64,000 bases of DNA from Naegleria gruberi (GCA_000004985.1 GG738928.1), one strand, 5' to 3'. Counted from the first letter of the stretch, positions 27,096 through 42,274 are shown. Numbers and translations: made by a program. Notes: generated from the sequence alone by a model not told the origin.

Positions 27096-29594
27096 ATGTT
27101 TGAGAAATATAAATCTCACGTATTGGTAATTGTGTTGTTGGCCATTCTATGTGTTTCCAATACTTTGTTTTTGACACATGTTAAAGCTGCCACTCGACCA
27201 GCTCCTTTCGTTGGTGTCAATACAGCTGCAGGAACTAATTCAGTTGGAGATGGTCTTCCACCTGATGGTGCCACATATGTAAGACCAGTCAGTGTAAAGA
27301 TTGCTCAAAATGGTGATGTTTTCATTGCTGACCATGATCATTACACCATTCGTAAAGTTTCAAATGGAAAGGTTTCGACCATTGCTGGTAAAAATCTTGT
27401 ACAAGGTGATTCAGGAGATGGCACATTAGCTGCTAATGCTCTATTATCTGGTCCATCAGATCTCCTTCTTACAAGCTCTGGTGAATTACTCTTCATGGAT
27501 GGTGGTCCAAGGCTTAAAAAGATTGACAAGAATGGATTTCTGACGTGTCTTGCAGGAAATGGCTCTGAAATTCTTCCAGATGGTTTTCCAGCAAAAGATA
27601 CAAGATTCACTTCTATTGCTTCTATTGCACAACATCCAGTGACTGGTGAGATTTACTTGTCAGAAACTGGTAATCATACCATTAGACGAATCTCAACTAA
27701 TGGAAATGTTTATACAGTTGCAGGAACAGGTGAATTTGGATTCAGTGGAGATGGCGGTCCAGCTTTCGACGCCCAATTATTCTTTCCAAGTAGTATTGCT
27801 TTCAATAATGGAGGAGAATTGTTTATTTCAGATTTAGGTAATAATCGTATTCGAAAGATTGACAAAAATGGAATAATCTCAACAATTATAGGTGGTAGTA
27901 AAGGATATTCTGGAGATGAAGGCAATGCTGCTGATGCCATGATAGATGGTCCATATAGTTTAGCCTTCCATCCTGTCAGTGGTGATTTGACTTTTGTTGA
28001 CATTAACAATTACAGAATTCGAAAGATTTCTAATAAGGGAATAATTTCAACAATTGCTGGAAATGGTGAAAAGGGATCAATTGGCGATGGTGGTTCAGCA
28101 CTTAATGCACAAATTTATTATAGTGTTTCAATTTCATTTAGTCCAAATGGTGAACTATATATTGCAAACGAATGGAACAATAGAATTAGAAAGATTTCAT
28201 TATCTGGAATTATTTCAACCTATTCTGGTGGTACATTCGGTGATGGGTATGATGCTTCAAGTTGGGGTGTTTTGTTTTTACCTCAAGGTGTTTCCATTAC
28301 TCCAAACGGTGATGTGTTAATTGCTGATTCGAAACATGCACTTATTAGAAAGCTTTCTAATGGAGTTCTTTCAACAATTTACACCAAAACTGAGTTGAGA
28401 AATCCAACTTCTGCCATTATGAGACCTAATGGTGATATTTACTTTGCTGATCAGGATGAAAATAGGATTCGTAAGATTTCGGCAACAGACGGAACAGTTT
28501 CCATTATTGCAGGCAATGGAGCTACCTCTGGTTTTGAATCAGATGGAGTATTAGCACTTGATGCCACAATTGCCTCACTAGGCACCTTTGATTTCAATTC
28601 TAAAGGTGAAATTTTATTCACCGATTTGGAAAATCAAAGAATTCGTAAAGTTGCCTTAAATGGAAGTGTTTTAACAGTTGCTGGATTTAGTGCTGGTATT
28701 AATGGAACAATTGCTCCTTCCTATAGTGGAGATGGTGGATTGGCTACTCAAGCTGGTCTTAATAGTCCTTATGGAATTGTTGTCACTCCATCAGATGAAA
28801 TTTATTTGGTTGACAAGGGAAATTTCAGAATTCGTAAAATTTTGACAAATGGCACAATTATTACAGTTGCAGGAACTGGTACGCAAGGATTTTTAGGAGA
28901 TGGAGGTTTGGCCACCGCTGCAAGAATAAATCCAAGAGGTGGACTTGCAGTTTCGTCTAAGGGCGACATTTACTTTACTGACAATTACAGAATTCGAAAG
29001 GTGTTTGCAAATGGAAAGATTACAACTCTTGGTGGATTTTCATATGGTGGATTCTCTGGTGATGGTACTTTGGCAACTAATGGTGTATTTGATGCTCCAT
29101 TAGGAATTGCAGTTGACTCAAATGATAATGTCTTTATTGCAGATGTCAATAATGACAGAATTAGAAAGATTGGAAATATGTGTGCAGCTCCATATGTTGT
29201 TTCTGGATCTGAATGCATTCCAGTTTGTTATGGAATTAATTCGAATAATGTTTCGAGTGTTTGTTCTGGACGCGGTTCTTGTAATGATCCAAACAATTGC
29301 ACCTGTCAAGCAAATTATTATGGAAATAATTGTGAATTATTCAAATGCAAGGGAATTGCCAGTACTGATTCATCAGTTTGTTCAGGAAGTGGTCAATGTA
29401 TTGCTCACGATACTTGTAAATGCAGTGGAAAGGCTTATGGAGCTAATTGTGAGTTAGTTCTTGCTATTTCGAATGTCAATAGTGGAAAGGTTATTCCTAA
29501 AAACACTCTTTCTGATAGATTGAACGATGGCGTTTCAGTTTCCATTTCTCTATTGAGTATTATTATTTTCAGTATTATTCTATTGTTACATTAA
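27096..29594 (+). CDS. Secreted/surface NHL-repeat protein with three C-terminal EGF-like modules and hydrophobic C-terminal tail (GPI-anchor- or TM-like)
   Basis: It has a signal peptide 'HVLVIVLLAILCVSNTLF' and more than 10 NHL-type repeats (x-Y/F-IAD..N.RIRKI). Three Cys-rich EGF-like units are 'CSGRGSCNDPNNCTCQANYYGNNCE' and similar. The hydrophobic end is 'ISLLSIIIFSIILLLH'. Confidence 0.75.
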   Translation: MFEKYKSHVLVIVLLAILCVSNTLFLTHVKAATRPAPFVGVNTAAGTNSVGDGLPPDGATYVRPVSVKIAQNGDVFIADHDHYTIRKVSNGKVSTIAGKNLVQGDSGDGTLAANALLSGPSDLLLTSSGELLFMDGGPRLKKIDKNGFLTCLAGNGSEILPDGFPAKDTRFTSIASIAQHPVTGEIYLSETGNHTIRRISTNGNVYTVAGTGEFGFSGDGGPAFDAQLFFPSSIAFNNGGELFISDLGNNRIRKIDKNGIISTIIGGSKGYSGDEGNAADAMIDGPYSLAFHPVSGDLTFVDINNYRIRKISNKGIISTIAGNGEKGSIGDGGSALNAQIYYSVSISFSPNGELYIANEWNNRIRKISLSGIISTYSGGTFGDGYDASSWGVLFLPQGVSITPNGDVLIADSKHALIRKLSNGVLSTIYTKTELRNPTSAIMRPNGDIYFADQDENRIRKISATDGTVSIIAGNGATSGFESDGVLALDATIASLGTFDFNSKGEILFTDLENQRIRKVALNGSVLTVAGFSAGINGTIAPSYSGDGGLATQAGLNSPYGIVVTPSDEIYLVDKGNFRIRKILTNGTIITVAGTGTQGFLGDGGLATAARINPRGGLAVSSKGDIYFTDNYRIRKVFANGKITTLGGFSYGGFSGDGTLATNGVFDAPLGIAVDSNDNVFIADVNNDRIRKIGNMCAAPYVVSGSECIPVCYGINSNNVSSVCSGRGSCNDPNNCTCQANYYGNNCELFKCKGIASTDSSVCSGSGQCIAHDTCKCSGKAYGANCELVLAISNVNSGKVIPKNTLSDRLNDGVSVSISLLSIIIFSIILLLH

Positions 29595-36631: not shown

Positions 36632-37174
36632 CTTTGAATTACTTCTCTGTGAATGATGTTATTGTGAATTTTTTTGTTATTTGATGAAGAATTTATAATT
36701 GAATTAATTTTGGCTCCTTGATGATGATGAAATTATATTAGATAGATTGTTATTACTTGAAGGAATGTAATAGTAATATTGCTATCATCAATTCCATTAT
36801 TATAATAAAAATTAAAACAAAATCTTCCTCTCCATATCATCCACTAATGCCATCAAAATTCCTTCCTCCCACCACACATGTATCTTTCTCCAATGAATCC
36901 AGCAACAAACAAGAAAACTAGCTTGGCAAGCAAATGCCTTCCAAAAAACACCTTCTTTTGTACCTAGTCGCATTTCGGGATTTTTCTTCTTCAATGTCCT
37001 TCATTGTCCTGCAAGCTCCTCCTCCACAACAAAAAAATATTTCGCTTTGTTGTCTCTTGTACAGTACTCACACACACTTGTTTTTAGCCTTTCTCATCAT
37101 CAACTCATTGGCTTGTATCGAGAACAATTTTAGGCTTTTTCATTGAATAATAATAGTAATAATAATATTGGAAA

Positions 37175-40100
37175 ATGAGAACAACACTGAATAAGAATGC
37201 TATCAAACACTCTTCGGCAACACTTGGTGTCTTGATGAAGAAATCATCATCATCTTGTGGAGTGTTTGTAAAGAAGAATGATTTGAATTTTGGAAATAAT
37301 AATTTAATTGATAGTAATATATCAAGAGGGTTAAATAGTAATGTTGCTAGTTTGTACAATGCACAGACAAAGAGAAGAAACATTTCGGAAGAATTGCAAA
37401 AACCTAACACTGTAAATTTGGAACAAGTTCATGATGTCATCAAGAGAAATTTGAATACCAATGAATTGGATTGTATTTTTAAGCCAAAGAGCATTTGTGT
37501 TATTGATGATTTCAATCCTGATGTTCATGCTAGTCCAGTTCCTGTACCTAACGATAGTATTAGTAGTACTTTGGCTAGAAATGTTCTCTGGAATTTAATG
37601 TCTGTGTCACAAGTCAAGGTTTATGCAGTTTCTAAACATGTGGAAAGAGTTGGCAATGAACCAAAAACAAAGAGAAGACCACATTTATTGGGTGTACCAA
37701 TGTATCCATCTCTGAGTGAATTGTCAGCATCTAAATCTACAGAACAAAAGAAATTAGAAATTGATTTGGCTGTCATTTGTTGCCATCAAGTCGAAACCAT
37801 GTTCTATGCTTTGGAGGAGTGTATCAAGAATGGTGTTAAAGGATGTGTCATTATTGGAAGTGTTTACAGCAAATTTTATGAAAAATTCAGTGAAAATGAA
37901 ACAAAGAATATTGAAAAATTCAAGGAAATTGTCAAGGGATCTGACATTAGAGTTATTGGTCCTGGTATGGGTCTTATAACACCTCTTGTAACTCAATCAG
38001 GTCAATATCACGTTGGTGAAATTTACAATAACTTTTTGAATATTACTCCAACAAATAGAAGTTCTGAACTGACTCGTGGTAAAATTGGTGTTGTTTCACA
38101 ATCTGGTGCTTTGGCAACAACCATTCTCGATTGGAGTTTGAAGCAAGGAGTAGGATTGAGTGGTTTTGCCTGTGTTGGTGCTAATCAAACTGATGTTAAC
38201 TTTGCAGATATGGTTGAACATTTTGGTAATGATCCAAATACTCATGCCATCTTGTTGTACATTGAAGATTTGGGAAATAATGAACATATTAAGAGATTTG
38301 CCAGTGCTGCCAGAAGTGTAGCTTTAAAGAAGCCAATTATTGCCATGAAGATGAACACTAACAATAGAGACGAAGACAATTACCTTAATGCCCTCTTTGA
38401 AAGAGTTGGTATTTTAAGAGTTAATTCTATTGAAGAAATGTTTTACATGTCACAGCTTATTGGAAAACAAGCCATTACAAAGGGAAACACCATTACTGTT
38501 ATTTCTAACTCTGGTGGTGCTGCAACACTTGCTGTTGACGCCATCTACCAATCTAACATTACCGAATTGGGAGCTATTTCTAACAAGAGTGCAAAACTTT
38601 TGCAAGAGAGTGGAATTGATGTAGAAGAGGCTTTACTTTCTGGAAAGAAGGCTATTCCTGTAAATATCAGAAACACAGCCACTCCTGAACAATATGTTGC
38701 TGCTTTGGATATTGTATATAACGATCCAAAGACTGACAGCGTTCTTGTCATGTTAACTCCTCAAACAAGAACAGAACCAACAAGAACTGCTCAATTCTTA
38801 CAAAGATATATTGTTGAAAAGACAAAGGAAGGAAAATTATCCAAGCCAATTATGTGCTGTTTTATGGGTGGTAGAGATGTTGAAGCAGGTAGAAGTATCT
38901 TGTTGAGTGCTAACATTCCAGCTTTTGCCTTCCCAGAAATTGCTACCAAAGTATTCCAATACAATTACAGATACTCTAAGAATTTGGAAAATTTATATGA
39001 AGATCCAAGTCTTCTCGACAATGATGATGCCAGCCAAAATGAATCATCAAAACAAAAGGCTAGAGAATACATCAAGTCCTTACTTGAAAAGAATCCAAAC
39101 AAGGAAGCTCTCAATGAATATGAGAGTCAACATCTTCTTTCACTCTATGGTATTGGCGTTCCTCAGACAAGAATTGCTAACTCTGCTGAAGAAGCTGTGG
39201 AAGCTGCCAAACATATTGGATATCCAGTTGTGCTCAAATTGCACAATAGTGATACCACCATTTCCAAGTTAGATTTGGGTGGTGTTCTTTTGAATTTGAT
39301 GGATGAAAAGCAAGTTAAACAAGGTTTCAATTCTATCAAGCAATCAGTTGAAAAGAGTAATGTCAAATTTACTGGAGTTACTGTTCAATCAGATTGTAAG
39401 AAGATTGCTACTGGTAAGAGAGATTCCATTTCATTCGAATTGTATCTAGGATCTGAAGTTGATGAAAAGTTTGGACCAGTTATTTCATTTGGTACAGGTG
39501 GCTCTTTGCATCAAATTTACAAGGATAAGAGTTATGGCATTCCTCCACTTACTGCTCCTTTGGCCTATCAACTTTTGAGAAAGACAAAGATTTCTGATGC
39601 CCTCGTTGAAAGATTCAGAAATAAGCCAGCCATTGATATTGAAGGTTTAAAGTCTTTGCTCGTTCGTTTCAGCAGAATGGTTCTTGATAATAGCGATTTG
39701 ATTAAGGAATTTGAAATTAATCCTCTTCAAGCTCTTGCTACTGACAATGAAAAGTCCTTCACTGCTCTCGACTGCAGACTCACTCTCCACAAACCAAAGG
39801 CCAAGAAGGCTCAAAATGTCATTCGTTCCTACGAAAGAAAGTATGTCACCAACGTTAGTGATGATATCCTTGTTAGACCATCCAAGTTTTCTGATTTTAG
39901 AAAGCTTCTCTCATTCTTTACCAATCTCTCACCAAAGACTTTGGAATCTAGTATTAGAGAGTCAGCTCTTCGTTCACAATGCTCCATTGCTTTCCTCAGT
40001 TTGAAGAATCAATACAATAAGGCCAAGAATCAAGATGCTCCACAACCATTGGATCCATATGCATTGAGTCTTAACACAGATGGAGACTCTAAGGAGATTT

Positions 40101-40477
40101 ACCAAGAATTGGTTCAGTACGTTTCCAGTGACTTTGACAGAGAAGTTGTATTGTTCGCTATCGATAAGAAGAGCAAGTCCATTATCGGCATGGGTGTCTA
40201 CACAATTATGCAACAATCCATTGTTAGTTCAAAGAAGAGAAAGGCCGAACTCCAACTCCTTGTTGGTGAACAAGCTCAAGGAAAGGGTATTGGTAAATAC
40301 CTCTTGGAACAATTAATTCACATTGCCAAACAAGAAGGAAACATTTCACAACTCATTGCCTACACTCACCACTCCAACATTGGTGTTCAAAAGTTGTGTA
40401 CTCGCGCTGGATTTGTTGAGCAAGACAATTCAGAACTTTTTGAACAAGGTGTTCTAGTTTCAACCTTGGATTTGTAA
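37175..40477 (+). CDS. Pat-like protein: NDP-forming acyl-CoA synthetase-like region (CoA-binding, ligase-CoA and ATP-grasp) fused to C-terminal GNAT acetyltransferase
   Basis: 1100-aa single ORF. The CoA-binding region is around 'KSICVIDDFNPDV'. The succinyl-CoA-ligase-like region is 'GKIGVVSQSGALATTILDWSLKQGVGLSGFACVGANQTD'. The ATP-grasp region is 'GYPVVLKLHNSDTTISKLDLGGVLLNL'. The C-terminal GNAT region is 'LLVGEQAQGKGIGKYLLEQLIHIAK'. No His aligns at the position of the ACD catalytic HTGA histidine. Confidence 0.75.
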   Translation: MRTTLNKNAIKHSSATLGVLMKKSSSSCGVFVKKNDLNFGNNNLIDSNISRGLNSNVASLYNAQTKRRNISEELQKPNTVNLEQVHDVIKRNLNTNELDCIFKPKSICVIDDFNPDVHASPVPVPNDSISSTLARNVLWNLMSVSQVKVYAVSKHVERVGNEPKTKRRPHLLGVPMYPSLSELSASKSTEQKKLEIDLAVICCHQVETMFYALEECIKNGVKGCVIIGSVYSKFYEKFSENETKNIEKFKEIVKGSDIRVIGPGMGLITPLVTQSGQYHVGEIYNNFLNITPTNRSSELTRGKIGVVSQSGALATTILDWSLKQGVGLSGFACVGANQTDVNFADMVEHFGNDPNTHAILLYIEDLGNNEHIKRFASAARSVALKKPIIAMKMNTNNRDEDNYLNALFERVGILRVNSIEEMFYMSQLIGKQAITKGNTITVISNSGGAATLAVDAIYQSNITELGAISNKSAKLLQESGIDVEEALLSGKKAIPVNIRNTATPEQYVAALDIVYNDPKTDSVLVMLTPQTRTEPTRTAQFLQRYIVEKTKEGKLSKPIMCCFMGGRDVEAGRSILLSANIPAFAFPEIATKVFQYNYRYSKNLENLYEDPSLLDNDDASQNESSKQKAREYIKSLLEKNPNKEALNEYESQHLLSLYGIGVPQTRIANSAEEAVEAAKHIGYPVVLKLHNSDTTISKLDLGGVLLNLMDEKQVKQGFNSIKQSVEKSNVKFTGVTVQSDCKKIATGKRDSISFELYLGSEVDEKFGPVISFGTGGSLHQIYKDKSYGIPPLTAPLAYQLLRKTKISDALVERFRNKPAIDIEGLKSLLVRFSRMVLDNSDLIKEFEINPLQALATDNEKSFTALDCRLTLHKPKAKKAQNVIRSYERKYVTNVSDDILVRPSKFSDFRKLLSFFTNLSPKTLESSIRESALRSQCSIAFLSLKNQYNKAKNQDAPQPLDPYALSLNTDGDSKEIYQELVQYVSSDFDREVVLFAIDKKSKSIIGMGVYTIMQQSIVSSKKRKAELQLLVGEQAQGKGIGKYLLEQLIHIAKQEGNISQLIAYTHHSNIGVQKLCTRAGFVEQDNSELFEQGVLVSTLDL

Positions 40478-40840: not shown

Positions 40841-42274
40841 GTGTTAATAAATCAAGGAAGAAGGATGACTTATCACGAAAAGAAAGAAAGCAAAGGAATT
40901 AAATATTCCTTAATAAGCACCATCATGGTAATCATATTCATCATCATGATGGCAATGAACACTTTTGCTTACGGAAAAAAGGAAATATCAACCTCTTCAA
41001 CACCAAATACTAATATTTACTATTCATTATTGAATGAAAATGGTTCGATATCGACTAATGGAACCATAACTCCAAATCCTAGTACAGCAATGGATTGGTT
41101 CTGGGTTATTGTCAAGTCAATTTACTTTAATGCAATCATGAGTGGATTATTTGCAGGTGCTGTTACAATTTTTGTAACTGTAATTATTGAAAGATTTGGA
41201 CCTCAAATTGGAGGAGTTATTGCAACCTTGGTAAGTTTTATATGTGAAATGGTTCCAAAACTAATATATACGAAACAGCCAAGTGCTATCGTTCCAGCTC
41301 TAATTGGATTTGCATTCGATGCCAATAGAAATTATGAAACAGATGAGGAAAATAGAAGACACGTCCTAATTCAACAATTCTTCTCTGTTCCAATTGCTGT
41401 TTTCTGCAATATCACCATGATGGTTGTGTGGAAATATGGTCCAACTTTGTTGAATTGGATTATTTCCAAAATTCACAACAAGAAACAACATGTCAATAAT
41501 AAGGAAACTTTTAATTCTAGTGGACCAGCAGTATCCCTGGAAGATCACTTTAAGGAACATCATGATGATCATTTGGAATTGAAAGAAGTTGATTTGAATC
41601 ATGATAAAGAAAATCTGGTTGACCAAAAAGTGGAAGAAACAAAACCAAACAAGCACGAACTCTTGAAAAAGATTGGAAAGATGCTTATTGTTTGTTTCCT
41701 TTCCTTAATTGCTTGGTTTGTTGTAGCTGCAGTTTTTGTAGTTGTTACAAAAATTGTAAAATTATCGGATGACATTTTGATGGGTGTCAGTATGGGTTTC
41801 TATGGGTTGACCATAATTTCCAGTTTGATTTTCAATTGGAAACAGCCAACTACCAAACCAGGACCAGCCAAGAAAGTTGCTTGGTGGTTACTTTTGAGTA
41901 GAGGCATTTTGGCATGTGTCATTATCTGCATTTCAGTTTTGATGGGTGGCTTGAAATTGACATTTATTTCTGGCATGTTCTCAGTTTTTCCAGTAATCTC
42001 ACTTTCTTCCTTAATTTCCTTATGGTTATCTCAAGGAGAAATCCCAACCTCCAATGCATCTTCAACAATGATGGTTGGCAGTAATAGTTTACCAATTTTT
42101 GCTGCTGTCATGTGTGTTTGTTTGTGGTATATGAATATTGCGTTGGCTTTCTTGGTTGGATATGTTGCTTCTGCGTTGGTTGCTGTGTTGTGTTATGCTT
42201 ATTTGTGGTGGAGAAAGAAAGTTGCTCTCTCTTCTATGGTTGATGAAACGAAACTTGACGAAAGTAAACATTAA
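40841..42274 (+). CDS. Polytopic membrane protein (about 9-10 TM), unknown family
   Basis: 477-aa ORF with many hydrophobic helices and a central hydrophilic loop 'HVNNKETFNSSGPAVSLEDHFKEHHDDHLELKEVD'. Confidence 0.45.
   Translation: MLINQGRRMTYHEKKESKGIKYSLISTIMVIIFIIMMAMNTFAYGKKEISTSSTPNTNIYYSLLNENGSISTNGTITPNPSTAMDWFWVIVKSIYFNAIMSGLFAGAVTIFVTVIIERFGPQIGGVIATLVSFICEMVPKLIYTKQPSAIVPALIGFAFDANRNYETDEENRRHVLIQQFFSVPIAVFCNITMMVVWKYGPTLLNWIISKIHNKKQHVNNKETFNSSGPAVSLEDHFKEHHDDHLELKEVDLNHDKENLVDQKVEETKPNKHELLKKIGKMLIVCFLSLIAWFVVAAVFVVVTKIVKLSDDILMGVSMGFYGLTIISSLIFNWKQPTTKPGPAKKVAWWLLLSRGILACVIICISVLMGGLKLTFISGMFSVFPVISLSSLISLWLSQGEIPTSNASSTMMVGSNSLPIFAAVMCVCLWYMNIALAFLVGYVASALVAVLCYAYLWWRKKVALSSMVDETKLDESKH

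Follow-up and report, generated by a model that had tools for sequence, protein, structure and literature searches.

In the 64,000-nucleotide stretch of Naegleria gruberi DNA that we analysed (GCA_000004985.1, GG738928.1; hereafter the window), the forward strand carries a gene for an acetyltransferase-like protein at positions 37175..40477. The gene is a single-exon, intron-less open reading frame (ORF) with an ATG start, 1100 uninterrupted codons and a stop codon. Its product is identical to N. gruberi XP_002669321.1 (UniProt D2W2U9), confirming the single ORF proposed in an earlier reading of the window made without databases (the sequence-only reading). The protein joins a region resembling ADP-forming acyl-CoA synthetases (ACDs, EC 6.2.1.13) to a C-terminal GNAT acetyltransferase domain, the arrangement of the bacterial acetyltransferase PatZ/Pat, and we describe here its architecture, localisation, relatives and predicted function.

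We scanned the 1100-residue protein with Pfam and NCBIfam profiles, searched it against solved structures with phmmer, and compared an AlphaFold2 monomer model, built from an input alignment of 55 sequences, with the PDB by Foldseek. All feature coordinates are on the forward (+) strand unless noted. The first folded part was a degenerate CoA-binding (Rossmann) domain (residues 96-297; 37460..38065). Pfam CoA_binding was barely detected there (E=0.094, residues 171-227), and the model showed a beta-alpha-beta fold with a predicted local distance difference test score (pLDDT) of about 60-92. It is followed by a Succ_CoA_lig (ligase-CoA) domain (residues 298-430; 38066..38464; Pfam Succ_CoA_lig at 301-428, E=3.6e-33), a Ligase_CoA_2 domain (residues 431-605; 38465..38989; Pfam match at 490-603, E=9.7e-06), an ATP-grasp domain (residues 642-872; 39098..39790; Pfam ATP-grasp_5 at 642-871, E=6.8e-57) and the GNAT domain (residues 891-1100; 39845..40474; Acetyltransf_1 at 981-1080, E=2e-11; Acetyltransf_3, E=6.2e-09), which aligned to the GNAT domain of PatZ. 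The full ACD domain set claimed by the sequence-only reading was thus present at the level of the fold; at the level of motifs the claim failed, the CoA-binding profile being so faint and its motifs replaced, as described below.

Among solved structures, the top sequence matches were full-length E. coli PatZ (9it0 and 9isq; E about 1e-65), with the synthetase-like and GNAT parts both aligned, and the next in rank were the ADP-forming 4-hydroxybutyrate-CoA ligase and ckcACD1. The AlphaFold2 model had a mean pLDDT of 79 and a predicted template modelling (TM) score of 0.82, with disorder only at residues 1-79, 119-123, 279-284 and 929-968. Foldseek again ranked PatZ first among the PDB matches to this model (9it0/9isq; about 1030 columns, target-normalised TM score 0.78-0.81). 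The protein therefore has the layout that defines type I GNATs, an NDP-forming acyl-CoA synthetase-like region of about 700 residues followed by a C-terminal GNAT domain of about 200 residues.

The catalytic elements of the synthetase module were compared in an alignment of 200 homologs (alignment A1: four Naegleria proteins, about 100 fusions of the His type, PatZ-type proteins and 85 GNAT-less ACDs) and in an alignment of 55 fusion proteins (alignment A2); the GTDB loci L029, L047, L065 and L076, in which the longest ORF was the wrong one, were left out. ACDs are marked by the histidine of an alpha 'SHTG' motif and by a second histidine in the ATP-grasp domain, and neither was found in Naegleria. 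At the site of the alpha phosphohistidine loop (residues 392-407; 38348..38395), where relatives have 'TxAAAKAAASHTGxLTG', the protein reads KMNTNNRDEDNYLNAL, with 13 residues gone. Within their neighbourhood in alignment A1, only the Naegleria proteins had this loop, 'AAASHTGxLTG', removed by a clean deletion of 13 residues, and the same gap appeared in direct HMMER alignments to the ckcACD1 alpha subunit (4xyl_A) and to 8wzu. The sequence-only reading had pointed to KMNTNNRDEDNYLNAL as a catalytic site without histidine and had asked whether a better alignment might restore one; none of four alignments recovered a catalytic alpha-His, and neither did HMMER when run against the solved ACDs. 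The second relay histidine, which we take to be His71-beta of Bräsen et al. 2008, was present in all 85 ACDs and in 97 of the 100 His-type fusions, and it was serine in all four Naegleria proteins (Ser697; 39263..39265). Direct alignment to 4xyl_B confirmed that this position corresponds to the histidine of 'VVHKSDVGGV' in the ckcACD1 beta subunit, and to H531 of E. coli PatZ.

The CoA-contacting motifs were lost as well. In place of the invariant Gly-rich loop 'IGASExxGSVGRN', the CoA-binding domain has VIDDFNPDVHASPVPVPNDSISSTLARN (residues 109-136; 37499..37582), including a 14-residue insertion, and 'IGASExxGSVG' is replaced by IDDFNPDVHASPVPVPNDSISSTLA. The Rossmann Gly-loop position is Gly in 85 of 85 ACDs and Asp in Naegleria, so that the ACD-type Gly loop is absent. 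Residues G19, A20, S21 and G28 of E. coli PatZ are D, N (or S), D and A in Naegleria, and its acetyl-CoA ligands K23, R26 and R81 are I, T and T, with K23 and R26 falling within residues 109-136. The conserved 'PVNPKR' motif is replaced by AVSKHVERVGNEPKTKRRPH (residues 151-170; 37625..37684), again with an insertion, and 'ISAGFKE' by IGSVYSKFYEKF (residues 227-238; 37853..37888). Two elements were retained, namely the phosphate-site motif SQSGA at residues 308-312 (S308, Q309, S310, G311 and A312, all invariant in alignment A1) and the ATP-grasp Lys688, invariant across the 55 proteins of alignment A2. With both relay histidines and the CoA-binding motifs lost and the four-domain fold kept, the ACD module is, as judged from these alignments, catalytically dead. 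We also observed a Naegleria-specific three-residue insertion, 'NEH', at residues ~369-371 of the ligase-CoA domain (nt ~38273-38287, covering residues 367-371), which reads 'LGNNEHIKRF' where bacteria have 'IG---DARSF' and adds a histidine conserved in the genus.

Among four Naegleria species, every folded domain was 74-95% identical, with the highest value of all parts (95%) in the Ligase_CoA_2 domain, whereas the N-terminal extension was 47% identical. The CoA-binding domain showed 80% identity among the Naegleria species and only 29% to bacteria. These values indicate that all of the folded domains, including the ACD module, are under purifying selection. Because this identity was maintained despite the losses described above, the ACD module has been kept by selection for a non-catalytic role.

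The GNAT module, in turn, was intact at its catalytic motifs. Glu1025 (40247..40249) is the equivalent of PatZ E809, the proposed catalytic base (PMC12184503). The acetyl-CoA pyrophosphate-binding P-loop (Q/RxxGxG) reads 'QGKGIG' (residues 1035-1040; 40277..40294), with G1038 and G1040 invariant; the P-loop glycines of PatZ are G822-G824. The longer motif 'QGKGIGKYLL', by which the sequence-only reading had recognised the C-terminal GNAT, lies at residues 1035-1044. PatZ K860 corresponds to Arg1077, which is conserved. The Glu base and the P-loop were present in all Naegleria orthologs and strictly conserved in five eukaryotic relatives described below (P0139 and P0300-P0303), and the GNAT core was 75% identical within the genus. 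On these motifs the GNAT module looks alive. The 'gating motif' of PatZ (V746-T763) is a segment that opens the substrate channel upon acetyl-CoA binding. Its equivalent in Naegleria, the alpha1-alpha2 loop at residues 918-975 (39926..40099), has 58 residues versus 18-21 in bacteria, and the insertion is common to P0139 and P0300-P0303.

The Naegleria proteins exceeded their bacterial homologs at the N-terminus by about 85-115 residues. In N. gruberi this extension (residues 1-79; 37175..37411) was disordered (pLDDT below 50), basic and rich in Ser, Thr and Asn, with seven Lys or Arg and one Asp or Glu among the first 40 residues, and it is absent from the bacterial homologs; it is likely a mitochondrial presequence. 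Published organelle proteomics bears on this directly. Horváthová et al. (2021; PMC8134430) separated N. gruberi organelles on OptiPrep gradients and quantified 4198 proteins, 946 of which were putatively mitochondrial. XP_002669321.1 is included in Sheet 1 (putative mitochondrial proteome) of their Supplementary Data 2, an assignment that we made because the Sheet 2 header does not come until the file's very end. It was identified there by 38 unique peptides covering 49.1% of its length, and its median label-free quantification (LFQ) value rose from 23.6 to 27.2 and 29.6 over three fractions of increasing mitochondrial enrichment. The peptide coverage and the LFQ rise indicate full-size expression of the protein and its co-fractionation with mitochondria. 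The mitochondrial scores tabulated for it were 58 by TargetP, 55 by MultiLoc and 21 by PsortII, and the same list also contains an AMP-dependent synthetase (PMC8134430). The published proteomics and the basic, disordered presequence of roughly 80-90 residues agree on mitochondria. In accord with these findings, the organelle targeting suggested by the sequence-only reading was upheld, but the length that it gave, about 150 residues, was not: the extension spans about 85-97 residues, and the rest of those 150 forms the beginning of the degenerate CoA-binding domain.

The nearest bacterial homologs were proteins of 905-930 residues labelled 'bifunctional acetate--CoA ligase family protein/GNAT family N-acetyltransferase', with 31-35% identity over about 90% of the length and scores of up to 459 bits, compared with 224-239 bits for the PatZ type. 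A GTDB scan found this His-retaining clade in Chloroflexota, Acidobacteriota, Verrucomicrobiota, Cyanobacteria, Planctomycetota, Myxococcota, Actinomycetota and other phyla. Its members were 60-73% identical to each other across phyla and kept both histidines and all of the CoA motifs, and these closest bacterial relatives may be truly bifunctional. They share the architecture of the Naegleria protein, without the N-terminal extension and without the gating-loop insertion.

All trees were computed by neighbor-joining (NJ) with Kimura distances only, and the tree for bacterial placement had 100 bootstrap replicates. Monophyly of the Naegleria proteins was recovered in 100% of replicates, the bacterial His-retaining clade excluding Naegleria in 93%, and Naegleria together with that clade in 79%; Naegleria did not group with the types of E. 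coli PatZ, Vibrio or P0092. Orthology with the enterobacterial Pat/YfiQ was accordingly not found. Because Naegleria groups with the His-retaining clade and not with the PatZ types, the histidine was, on these trees, lost in Naegleria independently of E. coli PatZ, and the two losses are convergent. The label 'Parachlam...' of one homolog (P0008) led us to consider a donor among the chlamydial symbionts of amoebae, and this was rejected: the family was equidistant in many phyla, P0008 was no closer than others, and the bootstrapped NJ tree never nested Naegleria within a phylum.

Loss of the alpha-histidine is frequent in this architecture. In an exhaustive sample of 144 cluster representatives of GNAT-fused proteins, it was kept in 97 and lost in 47, in many different ways. 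Reviews define type I GNATs by an inactive synthetase domain without the histidine (PMC3195501, PMC8556138), a definition that fits only about one third of the sampled fusions.

We then compared the Naegleria protein with characterised systems. E. coli PatZ and Salmonella Pat (YfiQ, Pka) have the same domain order (CoA-binding, ligase-CoA, ATP-grasp, GNAT), lack the alpha catalytic histidine and keep the catalytic Glu (E809, equivalent to E1025) and the P-loop. They differ in that identity is just about 24-27% and Naegleria forms a separate subclade; the alpha-histidine was lost in Naegleria by deletion of the loop and in PatZ by substitution to Thr; and the ATP-grasp histidine is kept in PatZ (H531) and absent from Naegleria. 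Furthermore, Naegleria, unlike PatZ, has a destroyed acetyl-CoA site in the CoA-binding domain, a gating motif three times longer, and a mitochondrial presequence. The match to Pat/YfiQ made in the sequence-only reading consequently holds for the architecture, the His-less ACD module and the best fold, and not for orthology or the PatZ-type regulatory site: the protein is built as a type I GNAT and is not an ortholog of Pat. Archaeal and bacterial ACDs such as ckcACD1 (4xyl), the Pyrococcus horikoshii proteins (2csu/1wr2) and the 4-hydroxybutyrate-CoA ligase of N. maritimus (8wzu) are homologous to the N-terminal 870 residues and share the four-domain fold, but they have no GNAT domain, and only they possess the phosphohistidine loop and the beta-histidine.

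Eukaryotic relatives were sought by an exhaustive HMMER search over 1.84 billion representatives. This search detected P0139, a protein of 1069 residues with 42% identity and a score of 630 bits to the Naegleria protein, far above all bacterial matches. P0139 lies on metagenomic contigs beside eukaryotic genes for cytosolic RPS23, a MyTH4/RhoGAP protein and a split Methyltransf_16 protein. The best named matches of this RPS23 were Willaertia magna (88%) and Naegleria (87%), and other taxa reached at most 85%; the host of P0139 is thus probably another heterolobosean, as suggested by this one marker. A second search with P0139 as the query found P0300, P0301, P0302 and P0303 (1014-1079 residues), of which P0302 is flanked by RasGEF and E1-E2 ATPase genes. 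The basic N-terminal extension and the gating-loop insertion were common to Naegleria, P0139 and P0300-P0303. These proteins formed a clade in 96% of NJ bootstrap replicates, and Naegleria with P0139, P0300 and P0301 did so in 100%.

Within this clade the catalytic elements of the ACD module were lost to different degrees. P0302 and P0303 keep the alpha-histidine ('AAASHTG'), the Gly loop and the beta-histidine. P0139, P0300 and P0301 have lost the alpha-histidine motif and keep the Gly loop, with the beta-histidine remaining in P0139 only. In Naegleria all three are lost. Judged by these motifs, Naegleria stands at the most degenerate end of a graded series among its heterolobosean-like relatives.

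Further ACD+GNAT fusions were found in other eukaryotes, most of them with presequence-like N-terminal extensions. The histidine was kept in a hypothetical protein of the red alga Cyanidiococcus yangmingshanensis (KAK4531373; P0142), in two unnamed copies of the glaucophyte Cyanophora paradoxa (P0146 and P0151) and in the apicomplexans Cryptosporidium muris (XP_002140975, called an ACD), C. andersoni and C. serpentis (P0148). The protein of Galdieria sulphuraria (XP_005704786; P0145/P0291), labelled 'acetyl-CoA synthetase (ADP-forming)', has lost the alpha-histidine loop and the Gly loop, and its GNAT loop is degenerate ('ENNTLANELF'). Going by these motifs, its annotation is probably wrong and the protein may be a pseudoenzyme in both modules, and its loss of the alpha-histidine and Gly loop looks like an independent, convergent decay in a red alga. 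The heterolobosean-like clade joined the red algae and one of the two Cyanophora copies in 56% of NJ replicates, and Cryptosporidium and the second Cyanophora copy were placed elsewhere. Monophyly of all eukaryotic fusions was therefore unsupported, given the separate placement of the latter and the low value of the larger grouping.

Literature searches by accession and by topic found no paper that describes eukaryotic ACD+GNAT fusions as Pat-like, and a classification of eukaryotic GNATs (PMC7790372) mentions neither ATP-grasp/CoA-ligase fusions nor Naegleria. An 'acetyltransferase-like' gene reported as laterally transferred to Acanthamoeba (PMC7281194) proved to encode an unrelated GNAT-only protein of 345 residues. 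The fusion is patchy yet widespread in eukaryotes and was previously unnoticed. The sequence-only reading, which knew of no eukaryotic member, is corrected on this point by Galdieria, Cyanidiococcus, Cyanophora, Cryptosporidium and the heterolobosean-like contigs, whose proteins are mostly annotated as ADP-forming acetyl-CoA synthetases. It had also considered horizontal acquisition. As a recent, Naegleria-specific event this is ruled out by P0139 and P0300-P0303 in the 96%-supported eukaryotic clade, which shows that the gene predates Naegleria.

Taken together, we consider it fairly probable that the gene encodes a mitochondrial, type I GNAT-like protein acetyltransferase with a pseudoenzyme ACD scaffold, its activity and substrates being predicted by analogy. 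The nuclear-encoded protein would be imported into Naegleria mitochondria, where the GNAT domain would transfer an acetyl or other short acyl group from acyl-CoA to lysines of matrix proteins. PatZ/Pat acetylates the active-site lysine of AMP-forming acetyl-CoA synthetase, among other proteins, and by analogy AMP-forming acyl-CoA synthetases would be the prime candidate substrates. PatZ forms a homotetramer through interfaces between the CoA-binding and ligase-CoA domains and between CoA-binding domains, and it needs its regulatory domain to be active and to shape its substrate pocket. The dead ACD module of Naegleria may serve, as in PatZ, as a scaffold for oligomerisation and substrate docking. 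The larger gating loop would probably redefine substrate access, and the retained SQSGA motif and ATP-grasp lysine would leave room for regulation by phosphate or nucleotide. The origin of the gene probably lies in a His-retaining, bacterial-type ACD+GNAT fusion. In a common ancestor of the heterolobosean-like eukaryotes, this fusion would have gained the gating-loop insertion and a presequence, and it would then have lost its ACD elements stepwise.

Several observations weigh against this interpretation. PatZ has a second, regulatory acetyl-CoA site in its CoA-binding domain (K23, R26, R81 and the Gly-rich loop), which confers positive cooperativity. At the sequence level this site is missing from Naegleria, and the analogy with PatZ fails for the regulatory step because K23, R26, R81 and the Gly loop are not conserved. 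Since the sensor site is gone, acetyl-CoA sensing through the CoA-binding domain was probably lost and cooperative activation by acetyl-CoA is unlikely. The gating loop is heavily altered, and the model has low confidence at residues 929-968. As to localisation, the best PsortII call for the protein was the nucleus (N52; PMC8134430), fractionation proteomics demonstrates co-fractionation and is not proof of a matrix location, and no sirtuin or acetyl-CoA synthetase appears by name among the rows covered, which were all but 344 of the mitochondrial table (PMC8134430). A more far-reaching proposal, which we judge somewhat less likely than not, is that Naegleria and a patchy set of other eukaryotes possess a dedicated bacterial-type mitochondrial lysine acetyltransferase. 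It would have been produced by stepwise pseudoenzymisation of a bifunctional ACD+GNAT enzyme, and by acetylating its targets reversibly it would control carbon flux and the mitochondrial acyl-CoA synthetases in response to phosphate or nucleotide rather than acetyl-CoA.

Sequence does not separate lysine, N-terminal and small-molecule acceptors. The GNAT domain could be active on a non-lysine acceptor, such as a small-molecule amine, a metabolite, a toxin or protein N-termini, with the ACD module acting as a scaffold only. Its Pfam matches were generic (Acetyltransf_1/3/4/7) and its NCBIfam matches weak (ArsN1, RimI and PseH-type), the gating loop that shapes the pocket of PatZ is replaced by the 58-residue insert, and within the His-retaining bacterial clade, the putative source of the family, we know of no characterised member. 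Nevertheless, the whole-protein fold and domain arrangement are closest to PatZ, all characterised GNATs of types I and II are protein lysine acetyltransferases, and a conserved scaffold of 700 residues is easier to explain by the docking of a macromolecular substrate. We therefore regard a non-lysine acceptor as unlikely.

Complete catalytic loss is tolerated in the family, as the degenerate GNAT P-loop of Galdieria suggests, and the ACD half of the Naegleria protein is demonstrably dead. The protein might thus be a full pseudoenzyme, in which neither module is catalytic, and function as a structural or regulatory subunit that binds acyl-CoA, phosphate, nucleotide or a partner enzyme. The strict conservation of the GNAT Glu and Q/RxxGxG motif in the four Naegleria species, P0139 and P0300-P0303, together with the identity of the GNAT core within the genus, makes this still less probable.

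A bifunctional protein that remains active as an ADP-forming acyl-CoA synthetase by means of alternative residues would be in line with the BLAST label 'acetyl CoA synthetase subunit alpha', with the histidines of the nearest bacterial relatives, with the retained SQSGA and Lys688, and with the additional conserved histidine of the 'NEH' insertion. The swinging phosphohistidine loop, however, was deleted as a whole rather than substituted, the second relay histidine is Ser, all three CoA-contact motifs are gone, and no histidine could be aligned, so that residual synthetase activity is very improbable. An artefact, whether by chimeric assembly of two genes or by bacterial contamination, as an intron-less gene of bacterial type might suggest, is hardly credible: the full-length architecture recurs in independent N. 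fowleri and N. lovaniensis assemblies, on an ENA contig and across hundreds of bacteria, the neighbouring genes are eukaryotic, the base composition is host-like, and the 122-kDa protein was detected with 38 peptides and 49% coverage in N. gruberi organelle fractions.

The genomic surroundings bear out this last point. The orthologs of N. fowleri, N. lovaniensis and the ENA contig were 77-82% identical to the N. gruberi protein. The G+C content (GC) of the window is 0.34 overall; the Pat-like ORF has a GC of 0.366 and a third-codon-position GC (GC3) of 0.302, matching the adjacent genes. The flanking ORFs encode eukaryotic domains, including Teneurin-NHL/EGF, nucleoside hydrolase, trypsin, LRR, peroxiredoxin, F-box-like and a split MutS. 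The Pat-like gene is nuclear-encoded N. gruberi DNA, and contamination and chimerism are excluded because independent Naegleria assemblies share the architecture, the neighbours are eukaryotic and GC and GC3 are host-like; the eukaryotic flanks described in the sequence-only reading were borne out.

The ENA-contig ortholog adjoins trypsin and RasGEF genes. On this Naegleria-like contig (L081, 6475-7584, -) and on the contig of P0302 (L086, 3675-5081, -), the RasGEF gene is convergent and lies immediately downstream of the homolog, which could represent conserved microsynteny in favour of vertical inheritance; the arrangement is absent from the N. gruberi window. Directly 3' of the gene, an ORF of 477 residues (40841-42274, +) resembles a multi-pass membrane protein and matched no Pfam family at E<=0.001. 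Further upstream, an 832-residue Teneurin-NHL/NHL-repeat/EGF protein (27096-29594, +) has a GC3 of 0.197, well under the 0.29-0.33 of its neighbours. A 101-residue ORF with a GTG start, antisense to the gene's 5' end (37105-37410, -), is of low complexity (poly-Tyr and poly-Phe) and almost certainly spurious. Two gene models of the orthologs differ from the rest. The NCBI model of N. fowleri (FDP41_006314; P0002; 1052 residues) starts at an internal Met, and with the Logan model (P0138; 1119 residues) a presequence is recovered that resembles the one in N. lovaniensis. About 48 residues of the N-terminal part of the GNAT domain are missing from the N. lovaniensis model (P0004), probably owing to a falsely called intron.

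The finding bears on the annotation of the family, in that the ADP-forming label of the Galdieria protein is likely wrong and the definition of type I GNATs by a His-less domain is too narrow for the architecture. The series from intact through partly decayed to dead modules is a rare natural record of a catalytic domain turning into a regulatory pseudoenzyme domain, and the transition in the Naegleria line was independent of the one behind enterobacterial PatZ. The enzymatic nature of mitochondrial protein acetylation has long been debated, and in animals it is largely ascribed to non-enzymatic chemistry. GCN5L1/BLOC1S1 is a proposed component of a mammalian mitochondrial acetyltransferase and lacks a canonical GNAT catalytic site. 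It and the Naegleria protein are both candidates for enzymatic mitochondrial acetylation, yet they are unrelated in sequence and architecture, and only the Naegleria protein has a complete GNAT site. To our knowledge, the mitochondrial matrix has no established canonical GNAT acetyltransferase, and we know of no human counterpart of the Pat-type enzyme. N. fowleri, a close relative of N. gruberi, is a lethal pathogen. With a complete Pat-type acetyltransferase gene in a eukaryotic nucleus, bearing a presequence and encoding a protein already detected with mitochondria, the question becomes directly testable in a culturable amoeba. If the more far-reaching proposal made above is true, this protein would be the first clear case of a GNAT-type protein acetyltransferase in mitochondria, and its living intermediates would show how its regulatory pseudoenzyme domain originated.

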